Of a stretch of DNA of 64,000 bases, positions 11,598 to 41,462 are shown in pieces. Source of the stretch: an uncultured Collinsella sp. (GTDB lineage: Bacteria > Actinomycetota > Coriobacteriia > Coriobacteriales > Coriobacteriaceae). Location: assembly GCA_905199545.1 (NCBI GenBank), contig CAJKGW010000001.1:144606-208605 (forward strand), read 5' to 3'. Every line of letters starts with the position of its first letter. Within the stretch, counting starts at the first letter, position 1. The notes below the pieces were generated by a model. It ran no database searches. It saw nothing but the letters and a program-made list of their open reading frames with translations, and was not told the origin of the DNA. A program made the translations under genes and the position numbers.

Positions 11598-13847
<2,250 letters not shown>

Positions 13848-14120
13848 ATGTTGTTGTTCCTTATCTGCACGCGCAAGGGGCACGGCATGCGGCCGCGCGG
13901 GGCGTGCTTGGTAGTGCGCTAATACATACAAAAACAGGTGCGCACAGAGAGGACGTTGCTCAGCACGCTGGCGATCGCTTTGGCAGCCCTATCACGCGCC
14001 GTCCAGACGCAGCAGCTCTAAGCGATGGAGCAGATTCGCCGCCGGTTAGTATACCCGCACTCCGTATGCACCCACGTAAACCACAGATGACGAGGCGGAC
14101 GGGGCGGACCTGGGCCAATT

Positions 14121-14257
14121 GTCTCAATCTGTAACAGATACTCAGCAAAAACCGGTCCAGCTGTTATAGATCGAGACAAACTCAAACCTCGCAAAACAAA
14201 ATCTCGATCTATAACAACTAGAGGTCATTTTCCCTGCTAGATGTTACAGATTGAGAT
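14121..14257. repeat. Family A hairpin array, locus 1 (2 units plus a degenerate arm)
   Basis: Arms gtctcaatctgtaacag / ctgttatagatcgagac and tctcgatctataacaa / tgttacagattgagat. The loop of unit 1 is in reverse orientation (aaaaccgg). Confidence 0.8.
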
Positions 14258-14333
14258 GTTTGGCAGGGACTGCCAACGATTGAGCAGCCGCCCTCATCTG
14301 TAATGAAAAGTCATACATTCCAACTATTACTAG

Positions 14334-14356
14334 ACACCCCCAGGGGGTATGGGTGT
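14334..14356 (+). promoter_or_regulatory. Candidate CsoR operator overlapping the copA promoter
   Basis: ACACCCCCAGGGGGTATGGGTGT is a GC-rich pseudo-palindrome. It closely resembles the B. subtilis copZA CsoR operator (TACCCTACGGGGGTAT). It lies ~55 nt upstream of the copA ATG. Confidence 0.5.
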
Positions 14357-14408
14357 ATAGTATCGGTTGGTTAACAATTCCAACACTAAACTACAGAAAG
14401 GAGAAGCC

Positions 14409-16748
14409 ATGGCTCAAGATAAATTCGATGTGGGTGGCATGACGTGCGCCGCCTGCCAGGCGCACGTAGACCGCGCCGTGAGCAAGCTCGACGGCGTCGA
14501 GAGCGTCGCGGTCAATCTGCTCGCCGGCTCTATGCTGGTGGACTACGACCCTGCGCAGGTCTCCCCCGACGATATCTGCACCGCCGTCGACCGCGCTGGC
14601 TACTCGGCCTCACCCGTCAGCACGGGCACCGACGCCGCCCAAAGCGGCAGTACGCAAGCCAGGTCCGGCGCCGCCCATATGGAGTCGCCGACCAAAAAGT
14701 TGGAGGCCGCCGCCTCTGCCATGCGCACCCGCCTCATCGTCTCAATCGTCTTCCTCATCCCGCTGTTCTACATAGGCATGGGGCACATGCTCGGTTGGCC
14801 ACTGCCCGGCGTCTTCACCGACCACACCCACAGCATGACGCTCGCCCTCACCGAGCTCGTCTTGCTCATCCCCATCGTCTACGTCAACGACGCGTACTTT
14901 ATCAACGGCTTCAAGTCGCTCGTGCACGGCGCGCCCACCATGGACGCCCTCATCGCCGTCGGCGCCACCGCTTCCATTGCCTGGTCGCTCTACGCCATGT
15001 TCATCATGGCCGACCAGCTAGCCGCAGGTCAGGTGCACGAGGCCATGATGACGGGCATGGACAACCTCTATTTTGAGAGCGCGGGCACGATTCTGTCGCT
15101 CGTCACCGTGGGCAAATACCTCGAGACGCGCAGCAAGTCCAAGACCGGCGGCGCCATCGAGGCGCTCATCGACTTGGCGCCCAAGACCGCGACCGTCGTT
15201 GCCGATGACAGCACCGAGACCACGGTGGACGTCGACAGTATCCTTCCCGGCCAGGTCCTGCGCGTGCGCCCCGGCGAGTCTATCCCCGTCGACGGCGTGG
15301 TACTCGAGGGCGCGTCGGCCGTGGACGAGAGTGCGCTCACCGGCGAGTCCATCCCCGTGGAAAAGACCGCCGGCGACACCGTCAACGCCGCCACCGTCAA
15401 CCGCACCGGTTCGTTTACCTTCCGTGCCACACGCGTGGGCGCCGACACGTCGCTTGCCAAAATCATCCAGCTCGTCGAGGACGCCAACGCCACCAAGGCG
15501 CCCATCGCCCGCCTGGCCGACAAGGTCGCCGGCGTGTTTGTGCCCGTGGTGTTCGTGATCTCGGCCGTGACCTTTGCGGTATGGATGGCGCTGACCGGCA
15601 GCATAAACGAGGCGCTCACCTCCGCCGTGGCCGTGTTGGTGATCAGCTGCCCGTGCGCACTCGGCCTGGCCACGCCCGTCGCCATTATGGTGGGCACCGG
15701 CAAGGGCGCCGAAATGGGCATCCTGTTCAAGAGCGCCGAGGCGCTGGAGAATCTGCGCAGCGTGGGCACCGTGGTGCTCGACAAGACGGGCACCGTCACC
15801 CGCGGCAAGCCGGCCGTGACCGACATTGTGGTTGCCGCGCGCGCCGACGGCTCGCCCGCCATGAGCGAAAAGGCGCTGCTCAAGCTGGCCGCCGCGCTGG
15901 AGCGCTCGAGCGAGCACCCGCTGGCAGAGGCGATTATGGCCGAGTGCGAGGCGCGCGGAATCGTCGCACGCATGGTCGAGGACTTTGCCGCCGTGCCTGG
16001 ACGAGGCGTTACGGCGCGCGAGGGACAAAACGTCATCGCTGCCGGCAACGCGCGCTTCATGGGCGAGTTGGGCGCTGCCGTGCCTACGGACCTTGCCGAG
16101 CAATTTGCCACCGAGGGCAAAACGCCGCTGTTCTTTGCCAAGAACGGTGAGCTTGTCGGCACCATTGCCGTGGCCGACGAGGTCAAAGAGACGAGCGCTG
16201 CCGCCATTGCCGCATTGCGCAAGCTCGGCGTCGATGTGCGCATGCTCACCGGCGACAACCGCGTGACGGCCGAGGCCATCGCCCGCCGCGTGGGACTGAG
16301 CAGCGAACAGGTTGTCGCCGACGTCCTGCCCGCCGACAAGGAGCACCAGGTGCGCGAACTGCAGGATGCGGGCGGCAAGGTCGCCATGGTGGGCGACGGC
16401 ATCAACGACTCCCCCGCCCTGGCGCGCGCCGACGTGGGCCTTGCGATCGGCACCGGCGCCGACATCGCCAAAGAAGGGGCAGATGTGGTGCTCATGCGCA
16501 GCGACCTCATGGATGTTGCGCGCGCCATCGAGCTTTCGCGCGCCACGATCCGCAACATCAAGCAGGACCTGTTCTGGGCGCTGTTCTACAACGGCATCGG
16601 CATTCCGCTGGCGGCAGGCGTGTTCTTCCCCCTCACCGGTTGGCAGCTCTCGCCGATGTTCGGCGCCGCGGCCATGAGCCTGTCGAGCGTGTGCGTCGTA
16701 AGCAATGCGCTGCGCCTACGAACCTTTAAGCCTAAAGTGGCAAAATAG
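14409..16748 (+). CDS. copA: Copper-translocating P1B-type ATPase
   Basis: N-terminal HMA domain [11 protein letters not shown] motif ([11 protein letters not shown]), DKTGTVT and [17 protein letters not shown] before ATG 14409. Confidence 0.9.
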
Positions 16749-16895
16749 GTTCACCCTTAAGTCCATTTAGAACGGGTTTTCCAGGTGCCCGAGATTGACC
16801 TGAAAGAGGAGCGACGCGTACTTTGGTACGCGAGCGACGGCTTGAAGGTCAAGGTCGGGTGCCTGGGAAAGCCGACACAACAGAGAGGAATACCC

Positions 16896-17117
16896 ATGCG
16901 TTACACAATCAAGACTTCCGGCCTCATGTGCGGCCACTGCGACGCTACTGTCGAGACGGCACTGCTCAACGTGGCCGGCGTGACCGACGCCGACGCCGAT
17001 CACGAGACCCAGACCGTCCAGGTGGAGTGCGCCGACACCGTGACCGCCGAGCAGCTCGCCGCCGCCGTCGAGGCCGCGGGTGAGAAGTTCCACGCCCTTT
17101 CGGTGACCGCCGCGTAA
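16896..17117 (+). CDS. copZ: Heavy-metal-associated domain copper chaperone (CopZ-like)
   Basis: 74 aa with a MCGHC metal-binding motif. AGAGAGGAA SD. Confidence 0.8.
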   Translation: MRYTIKTSGLMCGHCDATVETALLNVAGVTDADADHETQTVQVECADTVTAEQLAAAVEAAGEKFHALSVTAA

Positions 17118-17160
17118 CGACCCGCACGTACCCCCCCCCGACCAGAAACGAGGACCCGCC

Positions 17161-17433
17161 ATGATGGCAGACCACAAATCGGTAACCCGCATGCTCAAGA
17201 CGGCACGCGGCCAGATCGACGGCATCTTGCGGATGGTCGATGAGGACCGTTACTGCGTCGATATTTCCACGCAGCTCATGGCAACGCAGGCGCTCATTGC
17301 GCGCATCAACGCCGACGTGCTCAAGGCGCATATCGAGGGCTGCGTGACTTCGGCAATCGAATCGGGCGACGAAGACCTCAAGGCCGCCAAGCTCGCCGAG
17401 ATCGAACGCGTCGTCGACAAGCTCTCCAAGTAA
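17161..17433 (+). CDS. csoR: CsoR/RcnR-family metal-sensing repressor
   Basis: 90 aa. RYCVDISTQL and the C/H/C ligand spacing are typical of DUF156 CsoR. Confidence 0.85.
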   Translation: MMADHKSVTRMLKTARGQIDGILRMVDEDRYCVDISTQLMATQALIARINADVLKAHIEGCVTSAIESGDEDLKAAKLAEIERVVDKLSK

Positions 17434-17443
17434 TTGGGGCATT

Positions 17444-17525
17444 GGGGACGGACTGCTTTGCACCTTCTTGGTGCATCGGGGACAGGTATGTTTGCACCAC
17501 CTTGGTGCAGATTGACCTGTCCCCC
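17444..17525. repeat. Family C motif, tandem pair (GGGGACnG...TTTGCACCnnCTTGGTGCA) with an enclosing GGGGACAGG...CCTGTCCCC stem
   Basis: Direct reading immediately after the csoR stop. It probably also acts as the terminator. Confidence 0.6.
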
Positions 17526-17579
17526 TTGCTCTAAATCGGGTATAAAGGCGTGCAGCATATCGAACGAAAGGCAATTTGC

Positions 17580-18053
17580 ATGAATGACTTTATGAAGGGC
17601 CGCAATGGCGCCGATGAGCTCACCATCGTTATGGGCTTTGTCGGCATCGTCATCGCGATGATCGGATCGATAGCCCATATCCAGTGGCTCAGCTGGATTG
17701 CCATCGCCGTAATCGTGATTGGCGTGCTGCGCGGCCTGTCCAAAAATATCGATGCACGTCGCAAGGAAAACGCGGCCTTTGTCGCCGCGACCGCTAACGT
17801 CCCCGGCCTGGGCAAGTTCGTAGCGAGCTTGGGTAGCGGCACCGCGGCTGCCAACGCCTCGCGCACGGCCGGTACCAGCAAGGAAGACTTTGAGCGTGCC
17901 AAGCGCACGGCCAAGAAGATGTGGAAGGGTCGCAAGACCACAGCATACCTCAAGTGCCCCAACTGCGGCCAGATGCTCTCCGTCCCCAAGGGCAAAGGCA
18001 AGATCCGCGTCACCTGCCCCAAGTGCCACGCCAAGATGGAAACCCGCTCCTAG
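17580..18053 (+). CDS. Small membrane protein with a C-terminal zinc-ribbon (CPNC...CPKC)
   Basis: One or two TM segments followed by a basic linker and a CxxC...CxxC motif. The start is assumed at MNDFMKG. Confidence 0.5.
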   Translation: MNDFMKGRNGADELTIVMGFVGIVIAMIGSIAHIQWLSWIAIAVIVIGVLRGLSKNIDARRKENAAFVAATANVPGLGKFVASLGSGTAAANASRTAGTSKEDFERAKRTAKKMWKGRKTTAYLKCPNCGQMLSVPKGKGKIRVTCPKCHAKMETRS

Positions 18054-18186
18054 CGCCCGCACGCGGGACAAATTAATCAGGTTTGTTTGTCCCAAATCTT
18101 AAGTATTTGTTCGATAAAAAAGCCGAGGCCTCGTGTTGAGACCTCGGCTTTTTGCATGCGGCAACGGAGCTGCCCCTTTGTCACAT

Positions 18187-19557
18187 CTACGCCACACCGT
18201 CGCGGGCGAGCTCCTCAGCCAGCGCTTCGGCAGGCATGGCCATAATCGCGTCGAGCTCGGCGTCCACCTCGGGAATACGCTTCACCTTGAGTTTGCGCAC
18301 CAGATCACCACGGCACATCACGTACGTCGGCTCACGCAGTGCGCACAGATCATCGAGCGGGTTCTTGCGCGTTACCAAGATATCGGCAGCCTTGCCGCAC
18401 TCGATCGTACCGGTCTCGCCGCCCAGCCCCAGCAGCTCGGCATTGATCTGCGTAGCCGTATGCAGCGCAAAGGCGTTGCTCACGCCCACGTACTTGGCAA
18501 AAAAGGCAACCTCACGCCACATGTCGTACTGCGTCACAAACGGGCAGCTCGAGTCCGTGCCCAGGCCCACCTTAACGCCAGCTTCCAGTGCGGCACGGGC
18601 GCTCTCGATGATGCCCGAACACACAATGTCGCCGTTCTTCTTTTGCGTGTCGGTCGAATGGGTCTTCTCCGGATCGAGCAGCACAAACGGCAGCGCGGGG
18701 CTGATAGTGCAGGTAACGCTGGGCGCACGCCCCTCAAGCTGCGTGCCCGCGGCGCCGCGGTACAGTTCCAAGATCTCGGGAGTCATCGGGGCACCGTGCT
18801 CGATCGTATCGACGCCGGCCTCAAGCGCGGCCTTCACGCCCTCGGTGCTCTCGACATGAGCCATAACCGGCAGGCCCACCTCGTGCGCAGCCTTGCACGC
18901 CGCCGCGGCAACCTCGACCGGCATGCGCAGCACGCCCGGCTCACCTACTTCGGTCGCGTCGAACACGCCGCCCGTCACGAACAGCTTGATGACGTCGGCA
19001 CCGCGCGCATACAAGTCACGCACTTGTTCGGCCGCCTCATCGGGGGTATCGGCGACCTGCGCGAACAGCCCCGCACCGTGACCGCCCGGCACCGTGACAC
19101 CCGTTCCCGGCGCCACCAGACGCGGACCCTGATACTTGCCGGCGTCGATAGCGTTGCGCACGGCAATATCGGCAAACAGCGGGTCACCCGCACCGCGCAC
19201 CGTGGTCACGCCGCTTGCCAACTGCTGCTGGGCGCTGCCCTTAAGAATATGGCGCACGATGGCGCGCCCCACGGGATTATCGAGCTTCTTCATCAGCGCG
19301 CCCGCATCGCCGGCCGAGACAGGCTTGCCCGAGCCGCACAGGTGCACATGCATATTGATGAGGCCGGGCATGAGGTACGCGCCGGCCAGGTCGATGACCT
19401 CGGCACCTGCAGGCGCCTGCGCCACAGCACTCGGCCCCACCCACGTGATGACACCGCGCTCAACGGCCACGGCCATATCGGGTTGCGGCTCCATATGCTC
19501 CGAGCCATCCAGGACGGTCGCATTGATAAACAACGTGGAACGATCGGCAGACGCCAT
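18187..19557 (-). CDS. Amidohydrolase-family metal-dependent hydrolase
   Basis: GLINMHVHL (HxH), conserved H and D ligands, and an amidohydrolase fold pattern. Start MASADRS with a GGGAGGAG SD. Confidence 0.8.
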   Translation of the reverse strand: MASADRSTLFINATVLDGSEHMEPQPDMAVAVERGVITWVGPSAVAQAPAGAEVIDLAGAYLMPGLINMHVHLCGSGKPVSAGDAGALMKKLDNPVGRAIVRHILKGSAQQQLASGVTTVRGAGDPLFADIAVRNAIDAGKYQGPRLVAPGTGVTVPGGHGAGLFAQVADTPDEAAEQVRDLYARGADVIKLFVTGGVFDATEVGEPGVLRMPVEVAAAACKAAHEVGLPVMAHVESTEGVKAALEAGVDTIEHGAPMTPEILELYRGAAGTQLEGRAPSVTCTISPALPFVLLDPEKTHSTDTQKKNGDIVCSGIIESARAALEAGVKVGLGTDSSCPFVTQYDMWREVAFFAKYVGVSNAFALHTATQINAELLGLGGETGTIECGKAADILVTRKNPLDDLCALREPTYVMCRGDLVRKLKVKRIPEVDAELDAIMAMPAEALAEELARDGVA

Positions 19558-19706
19558 ATCGAGCTCCTCCCTCACGAGCAACTTGAACATTTGTCCATTA
19601 TCACCCAGTGCGGCAGGGTTGCTGCGGACATATCGGTTAACGGAGAAAGGATGAGACACGGAGAACGGAATGCATTGCAGTCCCATCCCAGCGACATCCG
19701 GGAAAT

Positions 19707-19923
19707 GTCTAGATCTGTAACAGGTAGACCGGGTTTTAGCAGCCAGATGTTACAGATCGAGATCTTTCGGCACCGCGTCCAACCTTTGTCTCAATCTGTA
19801 ACAAGTAGACAGGTTTTCGGCCTCTAGATGTTACAGATCGAGATATTTTAGCGGCAGCCAACCTTCTGTCTCGATCTGTAACAGTTGCGAGGCCAAACGG
19901 CCCCTTGTTGTTACAGATCGAGA
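19707..19923. repeat. Family A hairpin array, locus 2 (3 units, period ~80 bp)
   Basis: gtctagatctgtaacag...tgttacagatcgagat; gtctcaatctgtaaca...tgttacagatcgagat; gtctcgatctgtaacag...ttgttacagatcgagac. Confidence 0.85.
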
Positions 19924-19965
19924 CAAACTCGGCAGGAACAACCACATCCGCGTCAGTTACACCCC

Positions 19966-21042
19966 TCAGCGCCCATACCACTGCCGCCTCCACTGCTCAG
20001 CCAAATCGGCCCACTGCGGAATGCCCGCCAGTCTCATCTTTTCAGCCAGCTTCCCCGGATTCTTGAGCTCATCAAACGTAAACCTCAGCACCTTATGTCC
20101 GAGCATCGTCAGATGAGACTCTCGCTGACGTTCTGCCACGAACGGGTCGACCGACTCCCGACCCTCGTCGTTCTGTAAGGCATACTTTCCCTTTCCATCG
20201 AGCTCGCCAATCACGCACGTCCCGTCCTCGAGCCTCCAGAAATAATCAACGCGAAACACTTGGCTCGAATCAAGCGGGTCACGAAACTCCACCTGCAACT
20301 CTGGCACCGGAAAACCGTATGCAATAAAGAATGCCCGGAACCGAGACTCGCCACCGTTTTCGGACAGCCCGTCCGCATGCGACGCAATCACCTGAGCTCT
20401 GCGATATCCGCGTCTGCCCTCGCAATCGGCCTGGAGCCGTTCGCAGAGGTCGTCGCGCGATATGCCCTTCGCCCGCAGCGCAGAATCGGCGATCGCCAGA
20501 CCATACGAAAACGGCGCACGCAGCAGACAGTCCTTCACCGTGCGCCAAAACGGCGTCACTCGCACGCCGTCGACGCGCTCAAGCGCACCCGCCGCCTGCG
20601 GACGCAACAGCCGGCATCCTGCACTCAGCGGCACCGAGCAACCTGTCTTAACAAGAAATCGCGGCCCAAGCAGATCATTTGGCACCTCCAGACCCCACAA
20701 AAGTGCCGCGTCGTAACCCCAAAACGCCCAATCGGGATGAAACTCCGCAAGCCCTTTGATGGTCCGCAGCGCTCGCTCCGTCGGCGTCAACGCATCCCAA
20801 TCATGCTGAAAACAGAACAGGTGCGACTCAGGCTCCGCGATATCGTCGGTTCCCACATGGCGCCGCAGCCACATGAGCTCGGCATTGTCGTGCGTCACAA
20901 GCAGCACGCCTAGTTCAGCCGCCTCCGTGAGCCTGGCAAGCATCCTATTCCGCGCCAACGTGTTGCGAGCCGTATGCTTGTGTTTGAGAACGGTATTAGA
21001 CACTTCCATCACCACCACATCGGACAAATGGACCATTGTCAC
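19966..21042 (-). CDS. DUF559 (REase-like) domain protein with an AbiEi-like N-terminal region
   Basis: The C-terminus ESRFRAFFIAYGFPVPELQVEF...VDYFWRLEDGTCVIGELDGKGKY...TMLGHKVLRF matches the DUF559 pattern that is common in Actinobacteria. Confidence 0.65.
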   Translation of the reverse strand: MTMVHLSDVVVMEVSNTVLKHKHTARNTLARNRMLARLTEAAELGVLLVTHDNAELMWLRRHVGTDDIAEPESHLFCFQHDWDALTPTERALRTIKGLAEFHPDWAFWGYDAALLWGLEVPNDLLGPRFLVKTGCSVPLSAGCRLLRPQAAGALERVDGVRVTPFWRTVKDCLLRAPFSYGLAIADSALRAKGISRDDLCERLQADCEGRRGYRRAQVIASHADGLSENGGESRFRAFFIAYGFPVPELQVEFRDPLDSSQVFRVDYFWRLEDGTCVIGELDGKGKYALQNDEGRESVDPFVAERQRESHLTMLGHKVLRFTFDELKNPGKLAEKMRLAGIPQWADLAEQWRRQWYGR

Positions 21043-21063
21043 CGTTGCCTCCGCTGATAAACG

Positions 21064-21199
21064 TCTTGATCTGTAACAGTTAGACGTTCTCCAGGCCCCT
21101 AAACGTTACAGATTTAGACAAACCAGCGGCGCCCAGGTATTCGTCTCGATCTGTAACAGGTAGACCGGTTTTTTGTCCCTAAACGTTACAGATCGAGAC
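21064..21199. repeat. Family A hairpin array, locus 3 (2 units)
   Basis: gtcttgatctgtaacag...cgttacagatttagac; gtctcgatctgtaacag...cgttacagatcgagac. Confidence 0.85.
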
Positions 21200-21239
21200 A
21201 TAAAGGCAGAAGGCAAGGCAGGCGACAACCGTCCATCCC

Positions 21240-21947
21240 CTACTCCCATTCCTGTTCGTAGATGTTGAGCGACTTCACATACCGCCCCTGGGCACCCATG
21301 ATGTCGCGGACCAGGCGCAAAAAGAAGCTGATGCACGAGGTGTCGAAACCGTCCTCCAGGTCCTCGGGATGCACCGAGCCCGGCCCGTCGACCGTCGTGT
21401 CGCTCAGGCGCGCGATGTCATACAGGTAGAGCTGCCCCGCCGTCAGCCAGACATCGTCGACGCACGCGAGTCGCACCGCAATCGCACCATCGTTCCAGCG
21501 CTCCTTTTGCACGATATGTGGGTCGTAGACGTCAAAGCGACGGTCGGTGCGCGTGTCCTTCAGCACGACCATGCCAGTCGCGGGATCCTTGTCCAAAATG
21601 CCAAAGCGCGAGAAATACTGCGTGTCACGCACCTGCTTAAGTCGCCCGAGCGAAGCAGGAGAAATTGACGCTGGCGGCTCGTCCACATACAGCTCCAACA
21701 GCGTCTTGCCGTGGTAATAGGGGCGCTCAAACAGCAGCCAATCGGTAAACGCCATGTTGTAGGCCATGATTTCGTTTTGAGATGGTTCCTCGCAATAGCT
21801 GAGCCACGGATCGACGATAATCTCGAACTGCTCGCGCGCCGGCTCCAGAAATTGAAACTTCCGCAGCATCCAAAAGTGAGCCATGTCGGCAATATCGTTG
21901 CCGACGGCCTCGGCCAGCTGCGCTCGATCAAAAACTTGGTCAGTCAT
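21240..21947 (-). CDS. Hypothetical protein
   Basis: 235-aa ORF with coding-like composition. No recognisable motif. Confidence 0.5.
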   Translation of the reverse strand: MTDQVFDRAQLAEAVGNDIADMAHFWMLRKFQFLEPAREQFEIIVDPWLSYCEEPSQNEIMAYNMAFTDWLLFERPYYHGKTLLELYVDEPPASISPASLGRLKQVRDTQYFSRFGILDKDPATGMVVLKDTRTDRRFDVYDPHIVQKERWNDGAIAVRLACVDDVWLTAGQLYLYDIARLSDTTVDGPGSVHPEDLEDGFDTSCISFFLRLVRDIMGAQGRYVKSLNIYEQEWE

Positions 21948-22242
21948 GGCATCCTCCTCAAACTGATGGACCTCAATTTGAGCTTACGAGGAGGGTGGGC
22001 AACCGAGGCAAGCGCGGGCAAAATAGGCCTTCGACTGCAAACCAGATGCTAACCAAACACTTGACGGGACACTTGACCGAATGAGTCCACCGCAACAAAA
22101 CCGCAGGTAGACATAGACAGCCAACCCGCCCTTTTGAGCCAGATGCCCGCAGCCACCACAGAAACAACAGGTGACCACAGCCCAAGAAGTCGACAAATGA
22201 ACACCCGTACGTCGACAAACGAGCAAATCGCTCGCAAATCCG

Positions 22243-22307
22243 CAAGGAGTGTCCCCAACGACTAGACAAAAAATGACTAGTCATTGAGGACGTTCTTAAA
22301 TGACTAC
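22243..22307. repeat. Family B motif copy (CAAGGAGTGTCCCC...AATGACTAGTCATTGAGGACGTTCTTAAATGACTA)
   Basis: Direct reading just 3' of gltD. Confidence 0.6.
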
Positions 22308-22308
22308 T

Positions 22309-23790
<1,482 letters not shown>

Positions 23791-23795
23791 GGCAC

Positions 23796-26700
23796 TTACG
23801 CCTCCTTCTTGGTCGAAGCAACAGGGCTGGCAGCCACGGACGCAGCACCCGCAGCACCGCCCGCAATATCGAAGCGAGCGACATCCGCGGCGCTCGCGCG
23901 ACCGGTCACAATGTCAAACGCCAGCTCCTCTGCCTGCGCATGCGTCTTACCGGCAGCCTCGCTCGCAGCGACAATCGCCAGCACACGCTCGTACTCGGTC
24001 GGAATGACCTTCACAAAGTGCTTGCTCATCGTCTCAAAGCTGTAGAGCAGCTTGATGCCGCGCGGGCTCTGCGTCGCGTCCACGTGCTCCTGGATGAGCT
24101 CGCGAATCTGCGCCAGCTCGCCGGCAGTCGGGGCCTTGAGCTCAACGCTCTCGTGGTTCACGCGGGCATCGAGCGTGCCGTACTGGTCAAAAACATAAGC
24201 CACGCCACCCGTCATGCCGGCAGCGAAGTTCTGCCCGACCTCGCCCAGGATGAGCGCCAGGCCACCCGTCATGTACTCGCAACCGTGGTTGCCGCAACCC
24301 TCGACCACCACGGTGGCACCGGAGTTGCGTACGCCAAAGCGCTGGCCGGCCAGGCCGTTGATGAAGCCACGGCCGCTCGTGGCGCCAAAGAACGCAACGT
24401 TGCCCACGATGATGTTTTCGTCGAACTTATAGGTCGCATGCGGGTTGGGGCGCACCGACACCTCGCCGCCCGAAAGGCCCTTGCCAAAGTAGTCGTTGGC
24501 GTCGCCGCACACGTTGAGCGTAATGCCGCGCGGCAGGAAGGCGCCAAAGCTCTGACCGGCCGAGCCATCGCAATCGATGGTGATGGAGCCGGCGGGCAGG
24601 CCCTCGGGATGCGCCTTGGTCACCGCGTTGCCCAAGATGGTGCCCACGCAGCGGTTGACGTTGGCGATATCGGCGCGGAAGCGAATCGGGCGCAGTTGCG
24701 CGCGAGCGTCGGCCGTGTAGGGCACAAACAGCGTGGAGTCGAGCGTCTTGTCGAGCTCGCTGTCCGCAGCCATCTGGGGCAGGAAGTGACGGCCGTCGGC
24801 ACCCGGGATGTGGGCACCAAACTCACAGGTCGCACCTGCCAGCACGGGCGACAGATCCAGCAGGTTAGCCTTGCGGTTGCCCGGGACCTCGATCTGGCGC
24901 AAGCACTCGGGATGGCCGACCATCTCGTCGACGGTGCGGAAGCCCAGGCTCGCCATGACCTCGCGCAGCTGCTCGGCAACAAAGAGCATAAAGTGCTCGA
25001 CATGCTCGGGCTTGCCGCGGAAGCCGCGACGCAGGCGACAGTTTTGCGTCGCGATGCCGGCGGGGCAGGTATCCTGCTGGCAGTCGCGCTGCATGAAGCA
25101 GCCCATCGAGATGAGCGGCATGGTCGCAAAGCCAAACTCCTCGGCGCCCAGCAGGCAGGCGACGGCAACATCGGTGCCGTCCATGAGCTTGCCGTCGGCC
25201 TCGAGCACTACGCGCGAGCGCAGGCCGTTTTGCAGCAGCGTCTGCTGGGCCTCGGCAAGACCGAGCTCCAGCGGCAGACCCGCGTGCCAGATCGAATCGC
25301 GAGCAGCGGCACCCGAGCCGCCGTTGTGGCCGCTGATCAAGATCTTGTCGGCAGCGCCCTTGGCAACACCAGTGGCGATGGTGCCGACGCCGGCCTCGCT
25401 GACCAGCTTGACCGACACGCGCGCGCCGGGGTTGGCGTTCTTAAGGTCAAAGATCAGCTCTGCCAGGTCCTCGATGGAGTAGATGTCGTGGTGCGGCGGA
25501 GGCGAGATCAGGCCGATACCGGGCGTGGACTGACGGACCTCGGCAATCCAGGGGTAGACCTTCTTGCCGGGCAGGTGGCCACCCTCGCCGGGCTTGGCGC
25601 CCTGGGCCATCTTGATCTGAATCTCGAAGGCGCTGCACAGGTAGCGGCTCGTCACGCCAAAGCGCGCACTTGCCACCTGCTTGATCGCGGAGTTCTTGGA
25701 GTCGCCGTTGGCCAGCGGGGTCTCGCGACGCGGATCCTCACCGCCCTCGCCCGAGTTGGAACGGCCGTGTAGGCGGTTCATGGCGATGGCCATGCACTCG
25801 TGTGCCTCTTTGCTGATGGAGCCATACGACATGGCGCCGGTGTTAAAGCGGCGGACGATGTTGAGCGCGGGCTCGACCTCGTCGAGTGCCACCGGCGTGC
25901 GACCGTTGGCATTAAAGTCGAGCAAGTCGCGCAGGCGCACGGCACGGCCGGTGCGGTGCAGGCGGGCGCTGTACTCCTTAAAGGTGTCGTAGCTGTCCTC
26001 GCGGCAGGCGGTCTGCAGCAGGTAGACAGTCTGAGGGTCGATCAGGTGATCCTCGCCGCCGAGCGGGCGCCACTTGGTCAGGCCCAGTGTGGGCAGCTGA
26101 TCGGGAGCCGGGCTCTTAAGGATGGCGAGTGCGGCGTCGTAGCGCTCATTCTGCTCGCGCTCGACGTCCTCGACACCCATACCGCCCACACGGCTCACCG
26201 TGCCGGCAAAGTACGCGTTAACAAACTCCGGGGTAAAGCCCACGGCCTCGAAGATTTGCGCCGAATGGTAGCTCTGCACCGTGGAGATGCCCATCTTGGA
26301 CATAATGGAGACGATGCCAGCGGTCGCAGCCCTGTTGTAATTGGCGATGCCCTGCTCGGCCGTCACGTCCAGATCGCCGCGCGCCGCCAGATCGCGGATG
26401 CACGCATGCGCGTTATACGGATAGATGCCGCTCGCGGAGTAACCCACCAGTGCCGCAAAGTCGTGCGGGGACACGGCATCGCCGCACTCCACCACGATGT
26501 CGGCAAAGGTACGCACGCCGGCGCGGATCAGGTGGTTGTGCACGCAGCCCACGGCAAGCAGCGACGGCACGGGTACCTCGCCCGCTCCGGCACGATCGCT
26601 CAACACCACGATGTTCACGCCGTCGCGGACCGCAGCCTCAACGTCCTCTGCAAGCTGCTTGAGCGCAGCCTGCAGCGCGCCCTCGCCGGCATCGCGGCGG

Positions 26701-28493
26701 TACACGGCACGGAAACGGCGGGTCTTAAAGCCCACGCGGTCGATGGCACAGATACGCTCGAACTCCTCCTCGTTCAGCAGTGGGCGCTCCAAGCGCACCA
26801 GCTGGCAGGCCGTACGAGAGTCCTCGAGCAGGTTGCCGTGGTTGCCCAGGTAGAGCGTGGTCGAGGTGACCATATGCTCGCGAAGGGCGTCGATGGGCGG
26901 GTTCGTGACCTGAGCGAACAGCTGATAGAAATAGTCGTAGAAGGAGCGCGTCTTCTTGGACAGGCAGGCCAGCGGCGCATCGATGCCCATCGAGGCGAGC
27001 GGCGCCTTGCCCTGCTGGGCCATGGGACGCACAACCTCGTCAACATCATCCCAGTGATACCCGAGCTTAGCCATGCGCACGGCGGCGGGCACCTCGGCGT
27101 CCTCGGCGGGCGTTGCCGTGGCAGGCCTATCGAGCGCGTCGACGGTCAGCGTCTCCTCGGCAATCCAATCACGGTAGGGCTTCTCCTTGGCGTAACGGGC
27201 GCGCAGCTCGTCGTTGTAGATCACGCGGCCGCGGGCAAAATCGACCTCGAGCATCTGGCCCGGCCCCAGACAGCCGCTCGTCAGGATGTTCTCGGGGCTC
27301 ACCTCGATGGTGCCCACCTCGCTTGCCAGCATAAAGCGACCGTCGCGCGTCACATAGTAGCGGGCGGGGCGCAGGCCGTTACGGTCGAGGGCGGCGCCCA
27401 GCGTGCGACCGTCGGTAAAGGCGATGGCTGCCGGGCCATCCCACGGCTCCATGAGCATGGACTGGTAAGCGTCGTAGGCGCGGCGCTCCTCACTCAGGCT
27501 GTCGTTGTGGTCCCACGGCTCGGGCAGCAACATGGACGCGGCACGCGTGAGCGGACGACCGTTCATGACCAGGAACTCAAGCACGTTATCCAGAATCGCG
27601 GAATCGGATCCCTCGCGGTTGATGATAGGCATCACGCGCTCAAGATCGTGCTGCAGCACGGGGCTGTACAGGTTGGGCTCGCGGGCGCGAATCCAGTTGA
27701 CGTTGCCCTTGAGGGTGTTGATCTCGCCGTTATGGATGATAAAGCGGTTGGGGTGCGCGCGCTCCCAGCTGGGCGTGGTGTTGGTGGAGTAGCGCGAGTG
27801 GACGAGCGCCACGGCCGTCTTGACGGCGGCGTCGTTGAGGTCGATGAAGAAGCGGCGCATCTGCGTGGCGACGAGCATGCCCTTGTACACGATAGTGCGC
27901 GAGCTCATGGAGCAGACGTAGAAGATCTTGTCGCGCAGGGCAAACTCGGCATCGGCCTTCTTCTCGATAGTGCGACGGCACACGTACAGGCGACGCTCGA
28001 AGGCATCGCCGGCGGGCGTGTCGTCGGGGCGGCCCAGAAAGGCTTGCAGAATGGTGGGCATGCAGGCGCGTGCCGTCTCGCCCAAGTCGTGCGGGTCGAC
28101 GGGCACCTCGCGCCAAAAGAGCAGCGGCACGCCGGCCTCGGCGCAGCCCTCCTCAAACACGCGACGGGCATCCTCTACGCCCTTGTCGTCCTGCGGGAAG
28201 AACAGCATGGCCACGCCATAGTCGCCCTCTGCCGGCAGAATCTGGCCGCACTTTTGAGCCTCTTTGCGGAAAAAGTGATGCGGAACCTGGAACAGGATAC
28301 CGGCACCGTCGCCGGTGTTCTTCTCGAGTCCCGTACCGCCGCGGTGCTCCAAGTTGACCAGAATGGACAGTGCGTCGTCCAGAATCTGGTGATGGCGCTC
28401 ACCGTTGATATCGGCAAGCGCGCCGATGCCACATGCATCGTGGTCGAATTCGGGGCGATAAAGGCCCTGCTGCCGAGCGGAATCTGCCTGCAT
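23796..28493 (-). CDS. gltB: Glutamate synthase large subunit
   Basis: 1565 aa. N-terminal amidotransferase domain (CGIGA), FMN-binding domain and a GXXG-repeat domain. Immediately upstream of gltD. Confidence 0.95.
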   Translation of the reverse strand: MQADSARQQGLYRPEFDHDACGIGALADINGERHHQILDDALSILVNLEHRGGTGLEKNTGDGAGILFQVPHHFFRKEAQKCGQILPAEGDYGVAMLFFPQDDKGVEDARRVFEEGCAEAGVPLLFWREVPVDPHDLGETARACMPTILQAFLGRPDDTPAGDAFERRLYVCRRTIEKKADAEFALRDKIFYVCSMSSRTIVYKGMLVATQMRRFFIDLNDAAVKTAVALVHSRYSTNTTPSWERAHPNRFIIHNGEINTLKGNVNWIRAREPNLYSPVLQHDLERVMPIINREGSDSAILDNVLEFLVMNGRPLTRAASMLLPEPWDHNDSLSEERRAYDAYQSMLMEPWDGPAAIAFTDGRTLGAALDRNGLRPARYYVTRDGRFMLASEVGTIEVSPENILTSGCLGPGQMLEVDFARGRVIYNDELRARYAKEKPYRDWIAEETLTVDALDRPATATPAEDAEVPAAVRMAKLGYHWDDVDEVVRPMAQQGKAPLASMGIDAPLACLSKKTRSFYDYFYQLFAQVTNPPIDALREHMVTSTTLYLGNHGNLLEDSRTACQLVRLERPLLNEEEFERICAIDRVGFKTRRFRAVYRRDAGEGALQAALKQLAEDVEAAVRDGVNIVVLSDRAGAGEVPVPSLLAVGCVHNHLIRAGVRTFADIVVECGDAVSPHDFAALVGYSASGIYPYNAHACIRDLAARGDLDVTAEQGIANYNRAATAGIVSIMSKMGISTVQSYHSAQIFEAVGFTPEFVNAYFAGTVSRVGGMGVEDVEREQNERYDAALAILKSPAPDQLPTLGLTKWRPLGGEDHLIDPQTVYLLQTACREDSYDTFKEYSARLHRTGRAVRLRDLLDFNANGRTPVALDEVEPALNIVRRFNTGAMSYGSISKEAHECMAIAMNRLHGRSNSGEGGEDPRRETPLANGDSKNSAIKQVASARFGVTSRYLCSAFEIQIKMAQGAKPGEGGHLPGKKVYPWIAEVRQSTPGIGLISPPPHHDIYSIEDLAELIFDLKNANPGARVSVKLVSEAGVGTIATGVAKGAADKILISGHNGGSGAAARDSIWHAGLPLELGLAEAQQTLLQNGLRSRVVLEADGKLMDGTDVAVACLLGAEEFGFATMPLISMGCFMQRDCQQDTCPAGIATQNCRLRRGFRGKPEHVEHFMLFVAEQLREVMASLGFRTVDEMVGHPECLRQIEVPGNRKANLLDLSPVLAGATCEFGAHIPGADGRHFLPQMAADSELDKTLDSTLFVPYTADARAQLRPIRFRADIANVNRCVGTILGNAVTKAHPEGLPAGSITIDCDGSAGQSFGAFLPRGITLNVCGDANDYFGKGLSGGEVSVRPNPHATYKFDENIIVGNVAFFGATSGRGFINGLAGQRFGVRNSGATVVVEGCGNHGCEYMTGGLALILGEVGQNFAAGMTGGVAYVFDQYGTLDARVNHESVELKAPTAGELAQIRELIQEHVDATQSPRGIKLLYSFETMSKHFVKVIPTEYERVLAIVAASEAAGKTHAQAEELAFDIVTGRASAADVARFDIAGGAAGAASVAASPVASTKKEA

Positions 28494-28629
28494 CGCGATC
28501 CTCCCCTAGATATTTAGACAGTCAGTTGAATAGGCATAGTAGGAGCATCGTCGGCCCGTTGTGTTTCCCACCCGTTTCGAAACAATCGCGTAACGCACAC
28601 CGACCATCAACGTCTTGCTATCAAACATG

Positions 28630-28680
28630 TACGTCAGCCCCCAAACATGTCGAAATTTGACATCTTTGGAGGCTGACGTA
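28630..28680. promoter_or_regulatory. ~47-bp imperfect palindrome in the gltB upstream region
   Basis: tacgtcagcccccaaacatgtcgaaatttgacatctttggaggctgacgta. The arms match at about 21 of 24 positions. Confidence 0.35.
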
Positions 28681-28842
28681 CACGTTTTAGTGCAGGGACA
28701 GCCGGCACATATGCATCTGGCCCCTTTGAATCATTCTGGAAACAAGGGCCATGCGGACTTTTGCATGATGGGGCTCGACACAGCAGGCCTCAAGGGCGGC
28801 AACAAGACGCCCAAGTTCGGCCTGTAAGCTCACCGCTTCAAA

Positions 28843-29060
28843 CATCTCAATCTGTAACAGGAAGACCCAATTTTGGCGCCTAGATGTTACAGATTGAGAT
28901 TTTCTGCGGAGCGGTTTTGGTTTGTCTCGATCTGTAACACGAAGGGCCGGTTTTGGCGGCCAGCTGTTACAAATCGAGATTTTCCATAGGACCATTTCTT
29001 CCTGTCTCGATCTGTAACACCTAGGCCCAATTTCCATCCCTAGTTGTTACAGATCGAGAC
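28843..29060. repeat. Family A hairpin array, locus 4 (3 units)
   Basis: catctcaatctgtaacag...atgttacagattgagat; gtctcgatctgtaacac...ctgttacaaatcgagat; gtctcgatctgtaacac...ttgttacagatcgagac. Confidence 0.85.
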
Positions 29061-29196
29061 ATTTCGGCAGCCCCCTTCACCATCCCATTCAAATAGAACA
29101 ATTTTGTTAGTCTTGGTTAACTTTTAAGCTTAAACGGGTATCCTTTGCGGCGTCAAGCAAACGGCACGCACACCGTGCCAGATCAAGGAGGCCCCT

Positions 29197-29970
29197 ATGG
29201 CGCACCAAGCAGACCAGCAGACGATGCAACTCGTCCTTATCCGTCACGGAGAGTCCGAGTGGAACAAGCTCAACCTGTTCACCGGCTGGACCGATGTCGA
29301 GCTCACCGACACGGGCCGCGAAGAGGCGGCAGCAGGCGGCCGCGCCCTCAAAGAAGCCGGTTTCGACTTTGACGTCTGCTACACTTCGCGTCTCAAGCGC
29401 GCGATCCACACCCTCAACATCGTGCTCGGCCAAATGGATCGCGAGTGGCTGCCCGTCATCAAATCCTGGAAGCTCAACGAGCGCCACTACGGTGCGTTGC
29501 AGGGTCTCAACAAGGCCGATGCCGCCGCGGAGCACGGCGACGAACAGGTGCTCATCTGGCGCCGCTCCTTCGATATCTGCCCGCCGGCACTCGAGCCGAA
29601 CGACGCGCGCGATCCCCACACCCAGGAGCAATACCGTGATGTCGCGCCTGATCAGCTGCCCTATACCGAATGCCTCAAGGACACGATCGCCCGCGCCTGG
29701 CCCTATTTCGAAGACGAGATTCGCCCCCAGATGCTCGCCGGCAAGCGCGTACTCATCGCCGCACACGGCAACTCCCTGCGCTCACTCGTCATGAAGCTCG
29801 AACACCTCACGCCCGAGGAGATCCTCAAGGTCAACATCCCCACCGGCGTGCCGCTCGTCTACACCTTCGATACCGATTTCAATGTCCTCGACAAGCGCTA
29901 CATCGGCGACCCGGCGACCATCGCCGCCAAGATCGACGCCGTGGCCAATCAGGGCAAAGCACACAAGTAG
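29197..29970 (+). CDS. gpmA: 2,3-bisphosphoglycerate-dependent phosphoglycerate mutase
   Basis: LIRHGESEWN, RLNERHYGALQG. AAGGAGG SD. Confidence 0.9.
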   Translation: MAHQADQQTMQLVLIRHGESEWNKLNLFTGWTDVELTDTGREEAAAGGRALKEAGFDFDVCYTSRLKRAIHTLNIVLGQMDREWLPVIKSWKLNERHYGALQGLNKADAAAEHGDEQVLIWRRSFDICPPALEPNDARDPHTQEQYRDVAPDQLPYTECLKDTIARAWPYFEDEIRPQMLAGKRVLIAAHGNSLRSLVMKLEHLTPEEILKVNIPTGVPLVYTFDTDFNVLDKRYIGDPATIAAKIDAVANQGKAHK

Positions 29971-30045
29971 CCCCAACCCAAAACCGACGCGTGGCGCCGC
30001 ACGGCCCAGATGTGACGTCACGCCGCCCATACACAGGAGCGCACC

Positions 30046-31302
30046 ATGCTCAGCCATCTCAAACAACACTTTGGCTCCCGACGCACCGGTGGTCACGGAG
30101 GCCTAGACATTGCGCGGCATATCGGCCCCGGGCTGCTCGTGACCGTCGGCTTTATCGACCCGGGCAACTGGGCCTCCAATATGGCCGCGGGCTCGCAGTT
30201 TGGCTACGCGCTGCTGTGGATCGTCACGCTGTCCACGATTATGCTCATCGTGCTGCAGCACAACGCGGCGCACCTGGGTATCGCCACGGGCGCCTGCCTT
30301 GCCGAGGCCACGACACGTTACCTCCCCCGCTTCGTCGGGCGTACGGTGCTCGCCAGCGCCTATCTCGCGACCATCGCCACCGCCATGGCCGAAGTCCTGG
30401 GCGGCGCGATTGCCCTTCAAATGCTCTTTGGGCTGCCCGTGCGCGCGGGCTGCGTCATCGTGGCGGCAGTATCGATGGCGATGCTCATGACGAACTCCTA
30501 CAAGCATGCCGAACGCTGGATCATCGCCTTCGTAGGCGTGGTAGGACTCTCGTTTTTGGCCGAGCTTGCACTAGTCAAGGTCGACTGGCCGCAAGCCGCC
30601 GCAAGCTGGATCACGCCCAGTATGCCCACTGGCTCTGCCGCGATTATCGTGAGTGTCCTGGGTGCGGTCGTTATGCCCCACAACCTTTTTCTGCACTCCG
30701 AGGTCATCCAATCCATGCACTTCGAAGGCCAAGGCGAGCAGGTTATCGAGGAACGTCTGCGCTATGAGCTCTTCGACACGCTCTTTTCGATGGGCGTGGG
30801 CTGGGCAATCAACTCGGCCATGGTCATCCTGGCCGCAACGACCTTCTTTGCGCACGGCATTGTCGTAGACGACCTCGCCGTCGCAGCGGACACACTCTCC
30901 CCCATTCTGGGCCCGGCGAGCTCGACCATCTTTGCGGTAGCACTGCTGTTTGCGGGCATATCGAGTAGTGTGACGGCGGGCATGGCGGCGGGCACCATCA
31001 CCGCGGGCATGTTCGACGAGGAATACGACATCCACGACCGACATTCCTCGATCGGGGTGGCGGCCAGTTTCGTCGGCGCAGTGGCGGCGTGCCTGGTCGT
31101 CCCAAATCCTTTTGAAGGTCTCATCTGGAGTCAGGCGCTGCTGTCGCTTCAGCTGCCGATTACGGTCTTTGTGCTCATACGGCTCACCAGCTCACGCCGC
31201 GTCATGGGCAAATACGCCAACTCGCGCCCGCTCAACGCGCTGCTCATAGGGATCGGCGCCATCGTGACGATTCTCGATGTCGTGTTATTGACGGGGATGT
31301 AA
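30046..31302 (+). CDS. mntH: Nramp-family divalent metal (Mn2+/Fe2+) transporter
   Basis: DPGNWASN motif with 11-12 TM segments. Confidence 0.9.
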   Translation: MLSHLKQHFGSRRTGGHGGLDIARHIGPGLLVTVGFIDPGNWASNMAAGSQFGYALLWIVTLSTIMLIVLQHNAAHLGIATGACLAEATTRYLPRFVGRTVLASAYLATIATAMAEVLGGAIALQMLFGLPVRAGCVIVAAVSMAMLMTNSYKHAERWIIAFVGVVGLSFLAELALVKVDWPQAAASWITPSMPTGSAAIIVSVLGAVVMPHNLFLHSEVIQSMHFEGQGEQVIEERLRYELFDTLFSMGVGWAINSAMVILAATTFFAHGIVVDDLAVAADTLSPILGPASSTIFAVALLFAGISSSVTAGMAAGTITAGMFDEEYDIHDRHSSIGVAASFVGAVAACLVVPNPFEGLIWSQALLSLQLPITVFVLIRLTSSRRVMGKYANSRPLNALLIGIGAIVTILDVVLLTGM

Positions 31303-31328
31303 TGGGGCGGGGCACCTACCCAGGCAAA

Positions 31329-31547
31329 CGTCTCAATCTGTAACATCTAGACACGCTTTTAATATCTAGATGTTACAGATCGAGATTATTCCGAGGGACA
31401 GCTCCGTTTGTCTCAATCTGTAACAAGTGGACCCAATTTTCACCGTTAGATGTTACAGATTGAGACCTTCTGCCGGACGGTTTTGGTTTGTCTCGATCTG
31501 TAACAGGAAGACCCGTTTTGAGCCGTTAGACGTTACAGATTAAGACA
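31329..31547. repeat. Family A hairpin array, locus 5 (3 units)
   Basis: gtctcaatctgtaacat...atgttacagatcgagat; gtctcaatctgtaacaag...gatgttacagattgagac; gtctcgatctgtaacag...cgttacagattaagac. Confidence 0.85.
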
Positions 31548-32428: not shown

Positions 32429-32477
32429 AACGATCACTCCCCTAGCTCGGGTTGGAACCTCATGGATGTATGTACCC

Positions 32478-32512
32478 ACAAAAAAGGCAGCGCCCATAAC
32501 GGACGCCGCCTT
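32478..32512 (-). terminator. Rho-independent terminator downstream of smpB
   Basis: Minus strand AAGGCGGCG...CGCTGCCTT followed by TTTTTTGTGGG. Confidence 0.5.
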
Positions 32513-32634
32513 TGAAACATATGTGTCAGAACAGTAAGAAAGATGAGACACCCGCAGCTGCGGTGAAATAGGGACTGAATAGCCCCTCAAACAGGCAAAA
32601 CAGTCCGTATTCCACCGCAACTTATGAAGGACGG

Positions 32635-34186: not shown

Positions 34187-34203
34187 ATATGTAGCAAATG
34201 CAA

Positions 34204-41360: not shown

Positions 41361-41462
41361 TGGTGCTCCTTATCGTCGTGCGTTTAAACTACATGAGCGC
41401 TTTGTATTTTAGCAGCATTAGCTTTGCTGCACATAAGAAGCATGGCGGGGTTTGGTCCCACC

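Follow-up and report, generated by a model that had tools for sequence, protein, structure and literature searches.

Family A, a modular inverted-arm repeat in intergenic arrays of Collinsella genomes

What is a repeat that can fold into hairpins doing at the borders of bacterial operons, and is it the folding or the sequence of the repeat that is maintained? This question is raised by a stretch of 64,000 nucleotides from an uncultured Collinsella sp. (contig CAJKGW010000001.1, positions 144,606 to 208,605; the whole stretch is referred to as the window), in which five intergenic regions carry arrays of a repeat called Family A. A preliminary description made from the letters of the window had offered a terminator or attenuator, a small-RNA module, a protein-binding site and a transposase target as possible functions. 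Here we describe the existence, architecture and taxonomic restriction of the repeat, the pattern of constraint on it, its position relative to genes and terminators and the dynamics of its arrays. The reading we favour, to which we give about an even chance, is that Family A is a DNA-level mosaic repeat similar to REPs (repetitive extragenic palindromic sequences) and to bacterial interspersed mosaic elements (BIMEs). Its arms would be putative recognition half-sites of a protein, and the arrays would be inherited vertically and change by in-register gain and loss of units and by exchange of modules.

In the window the arm pattern GTCTCGATCTGTAACA, with up to three mismatches allowed, was matched 26 times, compared with 0.27 matches expected from dinucleotide-preserving shuffles. 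The matches pair into 13 units, each made up of a left and a right arm around a 25-nt loop, and the units lie in five intergenic arrays (A1 to A5) with a unit period of 80-81 bp. A nhmmer profile built from 331 units of other genomes recovered the same 13 units (E 4e-19 to 6e-14) and gave no further match over the 64 kb. The earlier count of 13 units at five loci is thereby confirmed, with coordinates that differ by at most one base. The conserved 25-nt loop, the period of about 80 bp and the occurrence of the loop in either orientation were found again as well: every window loop is exactly 25 nt long, and the loops of A1 to A5 read -+, ++-, ++, +++ and +++. Folded as single strands, the units reach -16 to -34 kcal/mol, in agreement with the very stable hairpins that had been predicted, and the folding z-score of a three-unit array is -9.8 as RNA and -8.5 as DNA. 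Other parts of the preliminary description had to be corrected. The stems, given there as perfect over 16 bp, are fully complementary in only 4 of the 13 window units, the linkers are 23-24 nt long instead of 22, and the linker motif regarded as conserved occurs in only two or three of the window linkers. A density of about one array per 5 kb is true only between 14 and 31.5 kb. The five arrays are confined to 17.4 kb and leave 46.6 kb of the window without any; averaged over the window there is one array per 12.8 kb.

The copy number and the spread of the repeat were then followed outside the window. The arm RTCTCRATCTGTAACA was scanned against 185,579 species-representative genomes, and at least 120 stretches with matches were obtained; the window and 120 such stretches, 0.93 Mb in total, form the family sample. 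It contains 372 units in 149 arrays of one to five units (20 arrays with one unit, 59 with two, 50 with three, 16 with four and 4 with five). These arrays represent at least 45 distinct loci when counted as orthologous groups and 62 after de-replication by flanks, with a Chao1 estimate of about 65. Among the matches listed, the hosts are Collinsella, 'Coriobacteriaceae bacterium' or unlabelled or mislabelled bins orthologous to Collinsella loci, and in the flanks of the window's arrays several unlabelled bins match it with 87-97% identity. The window itself is accordingly assigned to a Collinsella of the aerofaciens group. The true arrays of IMG/VR are confined to nine Collinsella-like provirus contigs and are located in these at the host junction or close to it. 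Neither the arm nor a comparable hairpin array was seen in a small sample of 20 kb each from three relatives that are more distant, which were reached via GpmA homologues of 80-84% identity and include Collinsella sp. AGMB00827 (52% GC). Judged from these sequences, the family has so far been found only in Collinsella.

Rfam 15 gave no match to an array at the gathering threshold, and at E values up to 10 only noise from miRNA-precursor hairpins, with 17-25 bits against thresholds of 80-95. The arm sequence is absent from the searchable literature, in which there is no paper describing such a repeat in Collinsella and none linking Collinsella to miniature inverted-repeat transposable elements (MITEs). 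The REP surveys consulted report no REP family in the phylum Actinomycetota and no such family in its class Coriobacteriia, which they do not cover. The supplement of PMC8040213 lists structured-RNA candidates of Collinsella, some of which may overlap with the repeat, but the files searched from it hold no matching sequence. By Rfam 15 and the searchable literature Family A is thus previously undescribed, and with arms that re-align throughout the family the claim of novelty is upheld.

The module of Family A comprises 80-81 bp: two inverted 16-bp arms enclose a 25-bp asymmetric core and are followed by a 23/24-bp spacer, so that the palindromic unit without spacer measures 57 bp. One to five modules follow each other head to tail in intergenic DNA at operon borders. 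The arms follow the consensus R-TCT-Y-R-ATCTGTAACA, in which positions 2-4 and 7-16 are conserved to 92-100%, positions 1, 5 and 6 are polymorphic, and positions 5-6 form a CpG within TCGA/GATC. At most two mismatches to the consensus are found in 92% of the arms. The distances between arms are nearly constant: arm(+) and arm(-) start 41 bp apart in 355 of 358 cases, and the step from arm(-) to the arm(+) after it is 39 bp in 135 cases and 40 bp in 85. Loops have 25 nt throughout the family, linkers 23 or 24 nt. The loop is asymmetric (consensus ..TAGAcc.g.TTTTg.c..CTAG.) and its orientation is mixed within arrays (+++ 26, +-+ 15, -+ 24, ++ 21, +- 14). The 223 linkers fall into 52 unrelated clusters, most of them merely orthologues, and the linkers can therefore not be called conserved, as had been proposed. 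Their sole shared feature is a 4-nt R-W-W-Y beside each arm, often after a C-rich stretch (CCG). The W-tract beside the arms is TTT (232) or AAN (227), and its type on one side of a unit is independent of that on the other. With 43.8% the GC content of the units is far below that of the neighbouring genes (60-66%) and of the window (60.7%). Stems are fully complementary in 49 of 344 distinct units, and the median unit has two non-Watson-Crick positions.

Arms and the rest of the module differ strongly in their conservation. In 60 orthologous pairs of arrays of equal length, 3.5% of the sites differ in the arms, 12.1% in the loops and 10.7% in the linkers. Variable alignment columns, a count that avoids the non-independence of pairs, amount to 5.7% in arms, 19.5% in loops and 11.3% in linkers for 10 orthologous groups (Fisher p = 9e-12). 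Locus-specific arm variants (ATCTCA vs GTCTCG) are retained at the same orthologous position across species, so the conservation does not come from rapid homogenisation by gene conversion. The choice of loci by exact arms favours conserved arms, but linkers have diverged beyond recognition inside intact arrays, and their contrast with the arms is too large to come from that bias alone. The pairing of the arms shows no comparable constraint. Watson-Crick pairs occur at positions 6/52 with a frequency of 0.53 and a shuffled expectation of 0.50, and at positions 1/57 with 0.53 and 0.53. In the core, pairs are rarer than expected, and between the flanks there is no correlation. Among stem mismatches on the sense strand in tandem-gene contexts, G.U (78) is not preferred over A.C (84; p = 0.69). 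The comparison of orthologues thus indicates that the arms are kept as sequence and not as a pair, and that hairpin pairing would not be a selected property. The maintenance of arm sequence and distances, together with A/T tracts of free polarity, fits a DNA-binding protein that reads sequence and shape and does not fit an RNA structure.

The position of the arrays relative to genes was determined with gene calls from a GC3-based heuristic that was checked against Pfam; the one low-GC3 gene, at 19966-21042, was mis-called by it. No array lies inside a gene. The 114 classified arrays comprise 37 between divergent, 35 between convergent and 42 between tandem genes, and in these loci, which are biased by their selection, arrays occupy 41% of the divergent, 37% of the convergent and 11% of the tandem intergenic regions. 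The loop is oriented without relation to the direction in which the neighbouring gene runs. In 17 of 36 non-redundant 3'-facing intervals the stop codon and the array are separated by a canonical GC-rich terminator with T run; by the same strict criteria, none of 34 5'-facing control intervals has one. Where genes converge, both often end in a GC-rich terminator with T run of their own, with the array located between these two terminators. Arrays between tandem genes stand 56-70 bp from the stop codon upstream and 180-198 bp from the start codon that follows. The unrelated loop orientation, the arrays between divergent genes and the terminators in front of arrays, together with the lack of covariation and of a G.U bias, speak against the proposed roles as terminator, attenuator or small-RNA module, whereas the proposed protein-binding site or transposase target fits arms constrained as sequence.

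A separate observation concerns terminator-like hairpins built on the motif CCACCGCAAAGG...CCTTTGCGGTGG followed by T's, which recur at unrelated loci beside arrays (L144 5830-5875, L147 5215-5245 and 5420-5460, and the array flanks of L043/L109). They may constitute a second repeated hairpin family.

Orthologous arrays differ in length by multiples of 80 bp, and the unit count at a single locus ranges from 1 to 5 among species. The A4 locus has three units in the window, L030 and L002, two in L035 and one in L007, with all junctions in register. The single unit of L007 has a chimaeric loop, and in L002 one linker is swapped for an A5-type linker. The second linker of A5 and the first of A4 are identical at 18 of 23 positions, which indicates that modules are shared between loci, and near-identical adjacent linkers in L014 point to a recent tandem duplication. 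An in-situ inversion of loops or linkers in the manner of a shufflon was rejected, as none of 172 orthologous loops and none of 87 linkers is flipped. Signs of insertion were not found either. Target-site duplications of 2-8 bp (offsets 0-6) show no excess in 62 non-redundant arrays, no longer element with the same ends occurs among the stray arm matches, and no empty orthologous site was seen in 466 flank-anchored comparisons, for which the loci had been chosen because they contain arms. A candidate insertion sequence in the unit loop of L113 and L004 turned out to be one orthologous truncated unit and not a repeated element.

At six loci one genome has a segment between two arrays where another genome has a single uninterrupted array. 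At the A1 locus, L073, L049 and L067 have a solo unit, a 3.4-kb two-gene insert and an array of 1-5 units. This insert (L073 1615-5055; also in L049, L067 and L055) is missing from the window at 14121-14257; its genes encode an FHA-domain protein and a Ser/Thr kinase with DUF6273, the latter matching the PADLOC models PD-T4-6/mad6. In L039, array A2, the gene for a 358-aa protein and array A3 are replaced together by one single unit. The other cassettes contain an AAA-ATPase gene (L047 2250-4120), two small proteins without Pfam hits (L010 3100-5600), a PTS-EIIC/GH1/LacI sugar operon (L071 1900-7300) and a short segment (L026). A general reading of the cassettes as defence islands was dropped, since PADLOC matches the kinase alone and another cassette is a sugar operon.

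The cassettes in L047, L010 and L071 are bounded by direct repeats of 246, 311 and 193 bp with identities of 91%, 87% and 75%, respectively, which consist of the array and 45-167 bp of unique flank, and the empty form exists in other species. For the A1 and A2/A3 cassettes sharing is limited to the units. Direct repeats that reach 45-167 bp past the arrays, as in three of five cassettes, are a signature of general homologous recombination. From the extent of the repeats, the cassette events are therefore read as general recombination between repeats that include the arrays, and not as site-specific recombination at the arms. The same cassette was not seen at two different loci.

The 358-aa protein (19966-21042, minus strand) has no significant Pfam hit and shows a weak C-terminal match to DUF559, a Vsr-like nuclease (E = 0.039). 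Its gene is enclosed by arrays within 11-48 bp at both ends in 11 of 11 orthologous loci, which leaves no room for a promoter of its own. The protein was considered as a partner of the repeat, similar to the REP-associated tyrosine transposases (RAYTs), but this is not supported: a Collinsella paralogue has no flanking arrays, the protein's family is very large (4785 representative clusters at E <= 1e-3), L039 keeps an intact unit without the gene, and other array-flanked cassettes encode unrelated proteins. In the nine IMG/VR provirus contigs the array adjoins the integrase gene. A role as prophage attachment site was nevertheless rejected. At the GDSL-lipase locus the prophage junction is a 22-bp att core where the upstream gene has its 3' end. 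Some 90 bp separate this core from the array, which is present with and without the prophage, and at the MurT locus a tRNA-gene-like sequence lies between the recombinase gene and the array.

How would such a repeat work? In the mechanism we propose, the arms would be sequence-specific half-sites for a putative protein. That protein could be a transposase-like enzyme by which the units were once spread, or a nucleoid or topology protein that makes use of them today. Fixed distances, 41 bp and then 39-40 bp, each about four helical turns, would separate the half-sites, with A/T tracts of free polarity between them. Hairpin pairing would be a by-product of the inverted arrangement of the arms. 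The arrays would be inherited vertically at fixed loci and change by in-register gain or loss of whole modules, through slippage or unequal recombination, while modules would be exchanged between loci through their shared arms. Because the arrays are repeated, they would also come to lie at the breakpoints of gene-cassette insertions and deletions. That a protein binds the arms, and that the units originated by transposition, we infer.

Several points weigh against this mechanism. The helical phasing is only approximate, as the 80.5 bp of a module correspond to 7.7 turns at 10.5 bp per turn. Since the single strands form very stable hairpins, recognition could also take place in single-stranded DNA or RNA, and A3, which lies 20 bp from a start codon, must be part of the transcript there; A5, 27 bp from a stop codon, is probably transcribed as well. 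When IS200 TnpA and E. coli RAYT were compared by tblastn with the array-bearing DNA of 0.93 Mb, a weak test, nothing was obtained below E = 0.4. Most arm positions are invariant, so that covariation is testable only at positions 1, 5 and 6. Finally, the selection of comparison loci by exact arm match somewhat inflates arm conservation and hides empty sites.

Further readings were weighed as well. One, which we regard as doubtful, is that the arrays are functional chromosomal sites and not selfish DNA. They would then be phased half-site platforms for a dedicated putative Collinsella DNA-binding protein that marks or insulates operon borders, with a role in topology or nucleoid organisation, or they would belong to a non-RAYT enzyme that maintains the repeats, a REP-like partnership of host and element evolved independently in the Actinomycetota. 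This would explain purifying selection on the arms without selection on pairing, the exact spacing of 41 and 39/40 bp, A/T tracts without fixed polarity and the location of the arrays outside transcription units. An element acting in transcripts, where the hairpins would be bidirectional terminators, 3'-end stabilisers against exonucleases, RNase III sites or small-RNA modules, is quite unlikely in our view. The folding energies and the z-score of the three-unit array would suit it, as would the many arrays past gene 3' ends, those in tandem contexts being nearer to the upstream stop codon, and the probable transcription of A3 and A5 at 20-27 bp from coding sequence. In E. coli, REPs act as 3'-UTR elements, according to a preprint (bioRxiv 10.64898/2026.03.23.713779). 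However, pairing shows neither covariation nor a sense-strand preference for G.U, there is no U-tract rule as the flanks are TTT or AAA at random, and loop orientation is unrelated to gene direction. About one third of the arrays lie in divergent promoter regions and in almost half of the 3'-facing cases a canonical terminator precedes the array. Moreover, identity over hundreds of copies is far above what a structure needs, and no Rfam family matches.

A plain MITE, selfish and neutral, with the 16-bp arms as terminal inverted repeats to which a DDE transposase with its gene elsewhere would bind and the arrays as nested or adjacent insertions, is unlikely. It would account for the inverted terminal arms around a short core, the occurrence in one lineage only, both unit orientations within arrays, the dispersal to at least 45-62 distinct intergenic loci and a GC content of 44% in a 61% GC genome. 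The absence of target-site duplications, of longer elements with the same ends and, in a biased sample, of empty sites does not agree with it; strict 23/24-bp unit spacing and 80-bp steps of gain and loss are unlike independent insertions, and neutral decay of dead copies does not predict orthologous arms conserved three times better than the core. We think it very unlikely that the arrays are attachment or cassette-junction sites, integron-like or phage attB-like, at which a dedicated recombinase inserts and excises accessory genes. The six loci with array-bounded segments, the enclosed 358-aa gene in 11 orthologues and the provirus contigs with an array by the integrase gene recall such a system, but at one locus the prophage core lies apart from the array, and at another a tRNA-like sequence separates the recombinase gene from it. 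The direct repeats extend past the arrays, no cassette was found at two loci, no recombinase is associated, the arms miss RYYYAAC/GTTRRRY, and neither loops nor linkers are inverted. A CRISPR-like array, with the 57-bp hairpins as repeats and the 23/24-nt linkers as acquired spacers, can practically be dismissed. Its linkers would be constant in length and highly diverse, as they are here, but those of Family A are inherited at orthologous loci, where they diverge in a neutral-like manner (10.7%) without turnover, have ends held to R-W-W-Y, and recur as types at other loci. In addition, dozens of loci carry arrays of no more than 1-5 units, the arms stand inverted and not as direct repeats, and no cas gene was present among the flanking genes scanned against Pfam.

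The arrays of the window and their flanking genes are compiled in Table 1. At least one gene 5' end is faced by three of the five. The preliminary description had placed arrays in divergent promoter regions, between convergent genes and on both sides of one gene. The divergent and convergent sites were found as described, but the gene with arrays on both sides, that of the 358-aa protein, is on the minus strand, and A2 and A3 therefore sit between tandem genes.

Table 1. Family A arrays of the window with their flanking genes (positions in the window).
Array	Units	Coordinates	Unit positions	Flanking genes	Identified by
A1	2	14121..14257	left arms at 14121, 14201	DEAD-box helicase gene 11598-13931 (minus), copA 14367-16748 (plus); divergent (flanking genes with Pfam hits)	profile and arm matches
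A2	3	19707..19924	units at 19707, 19788, 19868	42 bp downstream of 358-aa gene 19966-21042 (minus); 20 bp upstream of amidohydrolase gene 18187-19686 (minus)	profile and arm matches
A3	2	21063..21199	units at 21063, 21143	20 bp upstream of 358-aa gene start codon; 40 bp downstream of gene 21240-21947 (minus)	profile and arm matches
A4	3	28844..29060	units at 28844, 28924, 29004	gltB 23796-28493 (minus), gpmA 29197-29970 (plus); divergent	profile and arm matches
A5	3	31330..31546	units at 31330, 31410, 31490	27 bp past mntH stop (30046-31302, plus); convergent with flavin-reductase-like gene 31925-32620 (minus)	profile and arm matches

Next to A1, 33 bp to its right, a degenerate solo arm gccctcatctgtaatg is present at 14290-14305, the counterpart of which in L067 is the intact arm ATCTCAATCTGTAACG. 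Between A1 and copA lies the palindrome ACACCCCCAGGGGGTAT (14334-14350). Further products of the copA operon are a copper chaperone-like protein with HMA domain and a repressor of the CsoR type (16785-17433). Judged by known CsoR operators, the palindrome is probably the CsoR operator, in which case the copA promoter would lie downstream of the array. Upstream of A4, an insert of about 200 bp (28601-28800) contains a palindrome with 39-nt arms (28616-28654 / 28656-28694, 82% complementary). It is present in the window and in L030 and absent at the same site in L007, L035 and L002. This insert is a second, unrelated MITE-like element, which unlike Family A is polymorphic for presence and absence. 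On the other side of A4, gpmA is missing between the array and mntH in L016 and L054, where the distance between the arrays is 1406 bp compared with 2269 bp, and the GpmA of the window is only 82-94% identical to other Collinsella GpmA proteins.

The window contains further repeats that are unrelated to Family A: 41-bp tandem hairpins (4945-5042), a 34-bp tandem repeat with palindrome (17434-17534), 33-nt inverted repeats that are 94% complementary and 67 nt apart (41458-41590), nested palindromes (59850-59962) and a perfect 27-bp tandem repeat with 2.7 copies (60925-60996). Two tRNA genes and, just above the gathering score, an L31-Coriobacteria ribosomal-protein leader were located at 34113-34277 and 49543-49578, in keeping with the taxonomic assignment of the window.

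Collinsella is a common genus of the human gut with unusually many species-level lineages, and in the sampled loci, a biased set, the repeat is found in about 40% of the convergent and divergent intergenic regions. Unit number varies between species at each well-sampled locus. Given this abundance, the changes in unit number and the accessory-gene breakpoints, the repeat is likely to contribute to genome plasticity in Collinsella. It offers a ready-made marker for strain typing, comparable to a variable-number tandem repeat (VNTR), and probably causes assembly breaks in metagenome bins. In addition, a constrained arm sequence without constrained pairing makes it testable whether such repeats serve their host or only themselves.

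How does Family A relate to known systems? It is not a canonical intrinsic terminator, for which a GC-rich stem, a short loop and a U-tract on the transcribed strand are expected: the stem has 44% GC, the loop 13-25 nt, and the flanks are TTT or AAA at random. It is not an integron attC array either: its CTGTAAC/GTTACAG misfit the core consensus RYYYAAC/GTTRRRY and lie at the inner ends of the arms, and no integrase was found associated with the arrays as in integrons. With the MITE-type repeats, such as Correia/NEMIS of Neisseria, RUP/BOX of Streptococcus and ERIC, Family A has in common that it is non-autonomous, intergenic, lineage-specific and high-copy with inverted ends, and BOX is modular as well, with a variable number of internal modules (boxA-boxB(n)-boxC). 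In contrast to these repeats, Family A is much shorter (57-bp unit), is strictly phased in tandem, shows no insertion polymorphism in the biased sample and has orthologous arms under constraint. Of the features of a MITE it thus has the terminal inverted repeats, in its 16-bp arms, and lacks the target-site duplication.

E. coli BIME-2 with gyrase, RIP/RIB with IHF, and the sites of Noc and SlmA are repeated extragenic sequence-specific sites in which fixed spacing matters. Family A would resemble such chromosomal protein-binding arrays, and it differs from them in that its sites form inverted pairs and tandem modules.

A REP is a palindrome of 20-40 bp with a GTAG/CGTC tag that lies mostly downstream of genes and is associated with a RAYT (PMC3733652). 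Compared with this, the palindrome of Family A has 57 bp with a 25-nt core and its arm alone is not self-complementary, its outer end reads R-W-W-Y and then GTCTC instead of the tag, its arrays are not preferentially downstream of genes, and its host is an actinobacterium of the class Coriobacteriia and not one of the Proteobacteria. A C at position -1, which would give CGTC, is found in only 22-28% of the arms, and TAG sits inside the core at the stem top, preceded by G in about a quarter of the loops. By size, tag and position Family A is therefore not a classical REP, although it is high-copy and extragenic like one. The likeness to REPs, BIMEs and REPINs as a group, which in Proteobacteria are mobilised by the RAYTs, tyrosine transposases of the HUH/Y1 type, is closer. 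All are short, extragenic, high-copy palindromic repeats with alternating orientation, fixed-length spacers and a unit number that varies between strains; they are mosaics with spacer types common to several loci and are inherited vertically at fixed loci, and a REPIN, like a unit of Family A, consists of two inverted short sequences around a less conserved spacer. The resemblance to BOX or BIME elements noted at the outset has held up in the alternating arms at fixed spacing, the variable unit number and the modules shared between loci. BIMEs are further known to bind IHF, DNA gyrase or DNA polymerase I. In its sequence organisation, Family A shares the architecture that defines a BIME, with alternating orientation, fixed spacers, mosaic composition and variable number.

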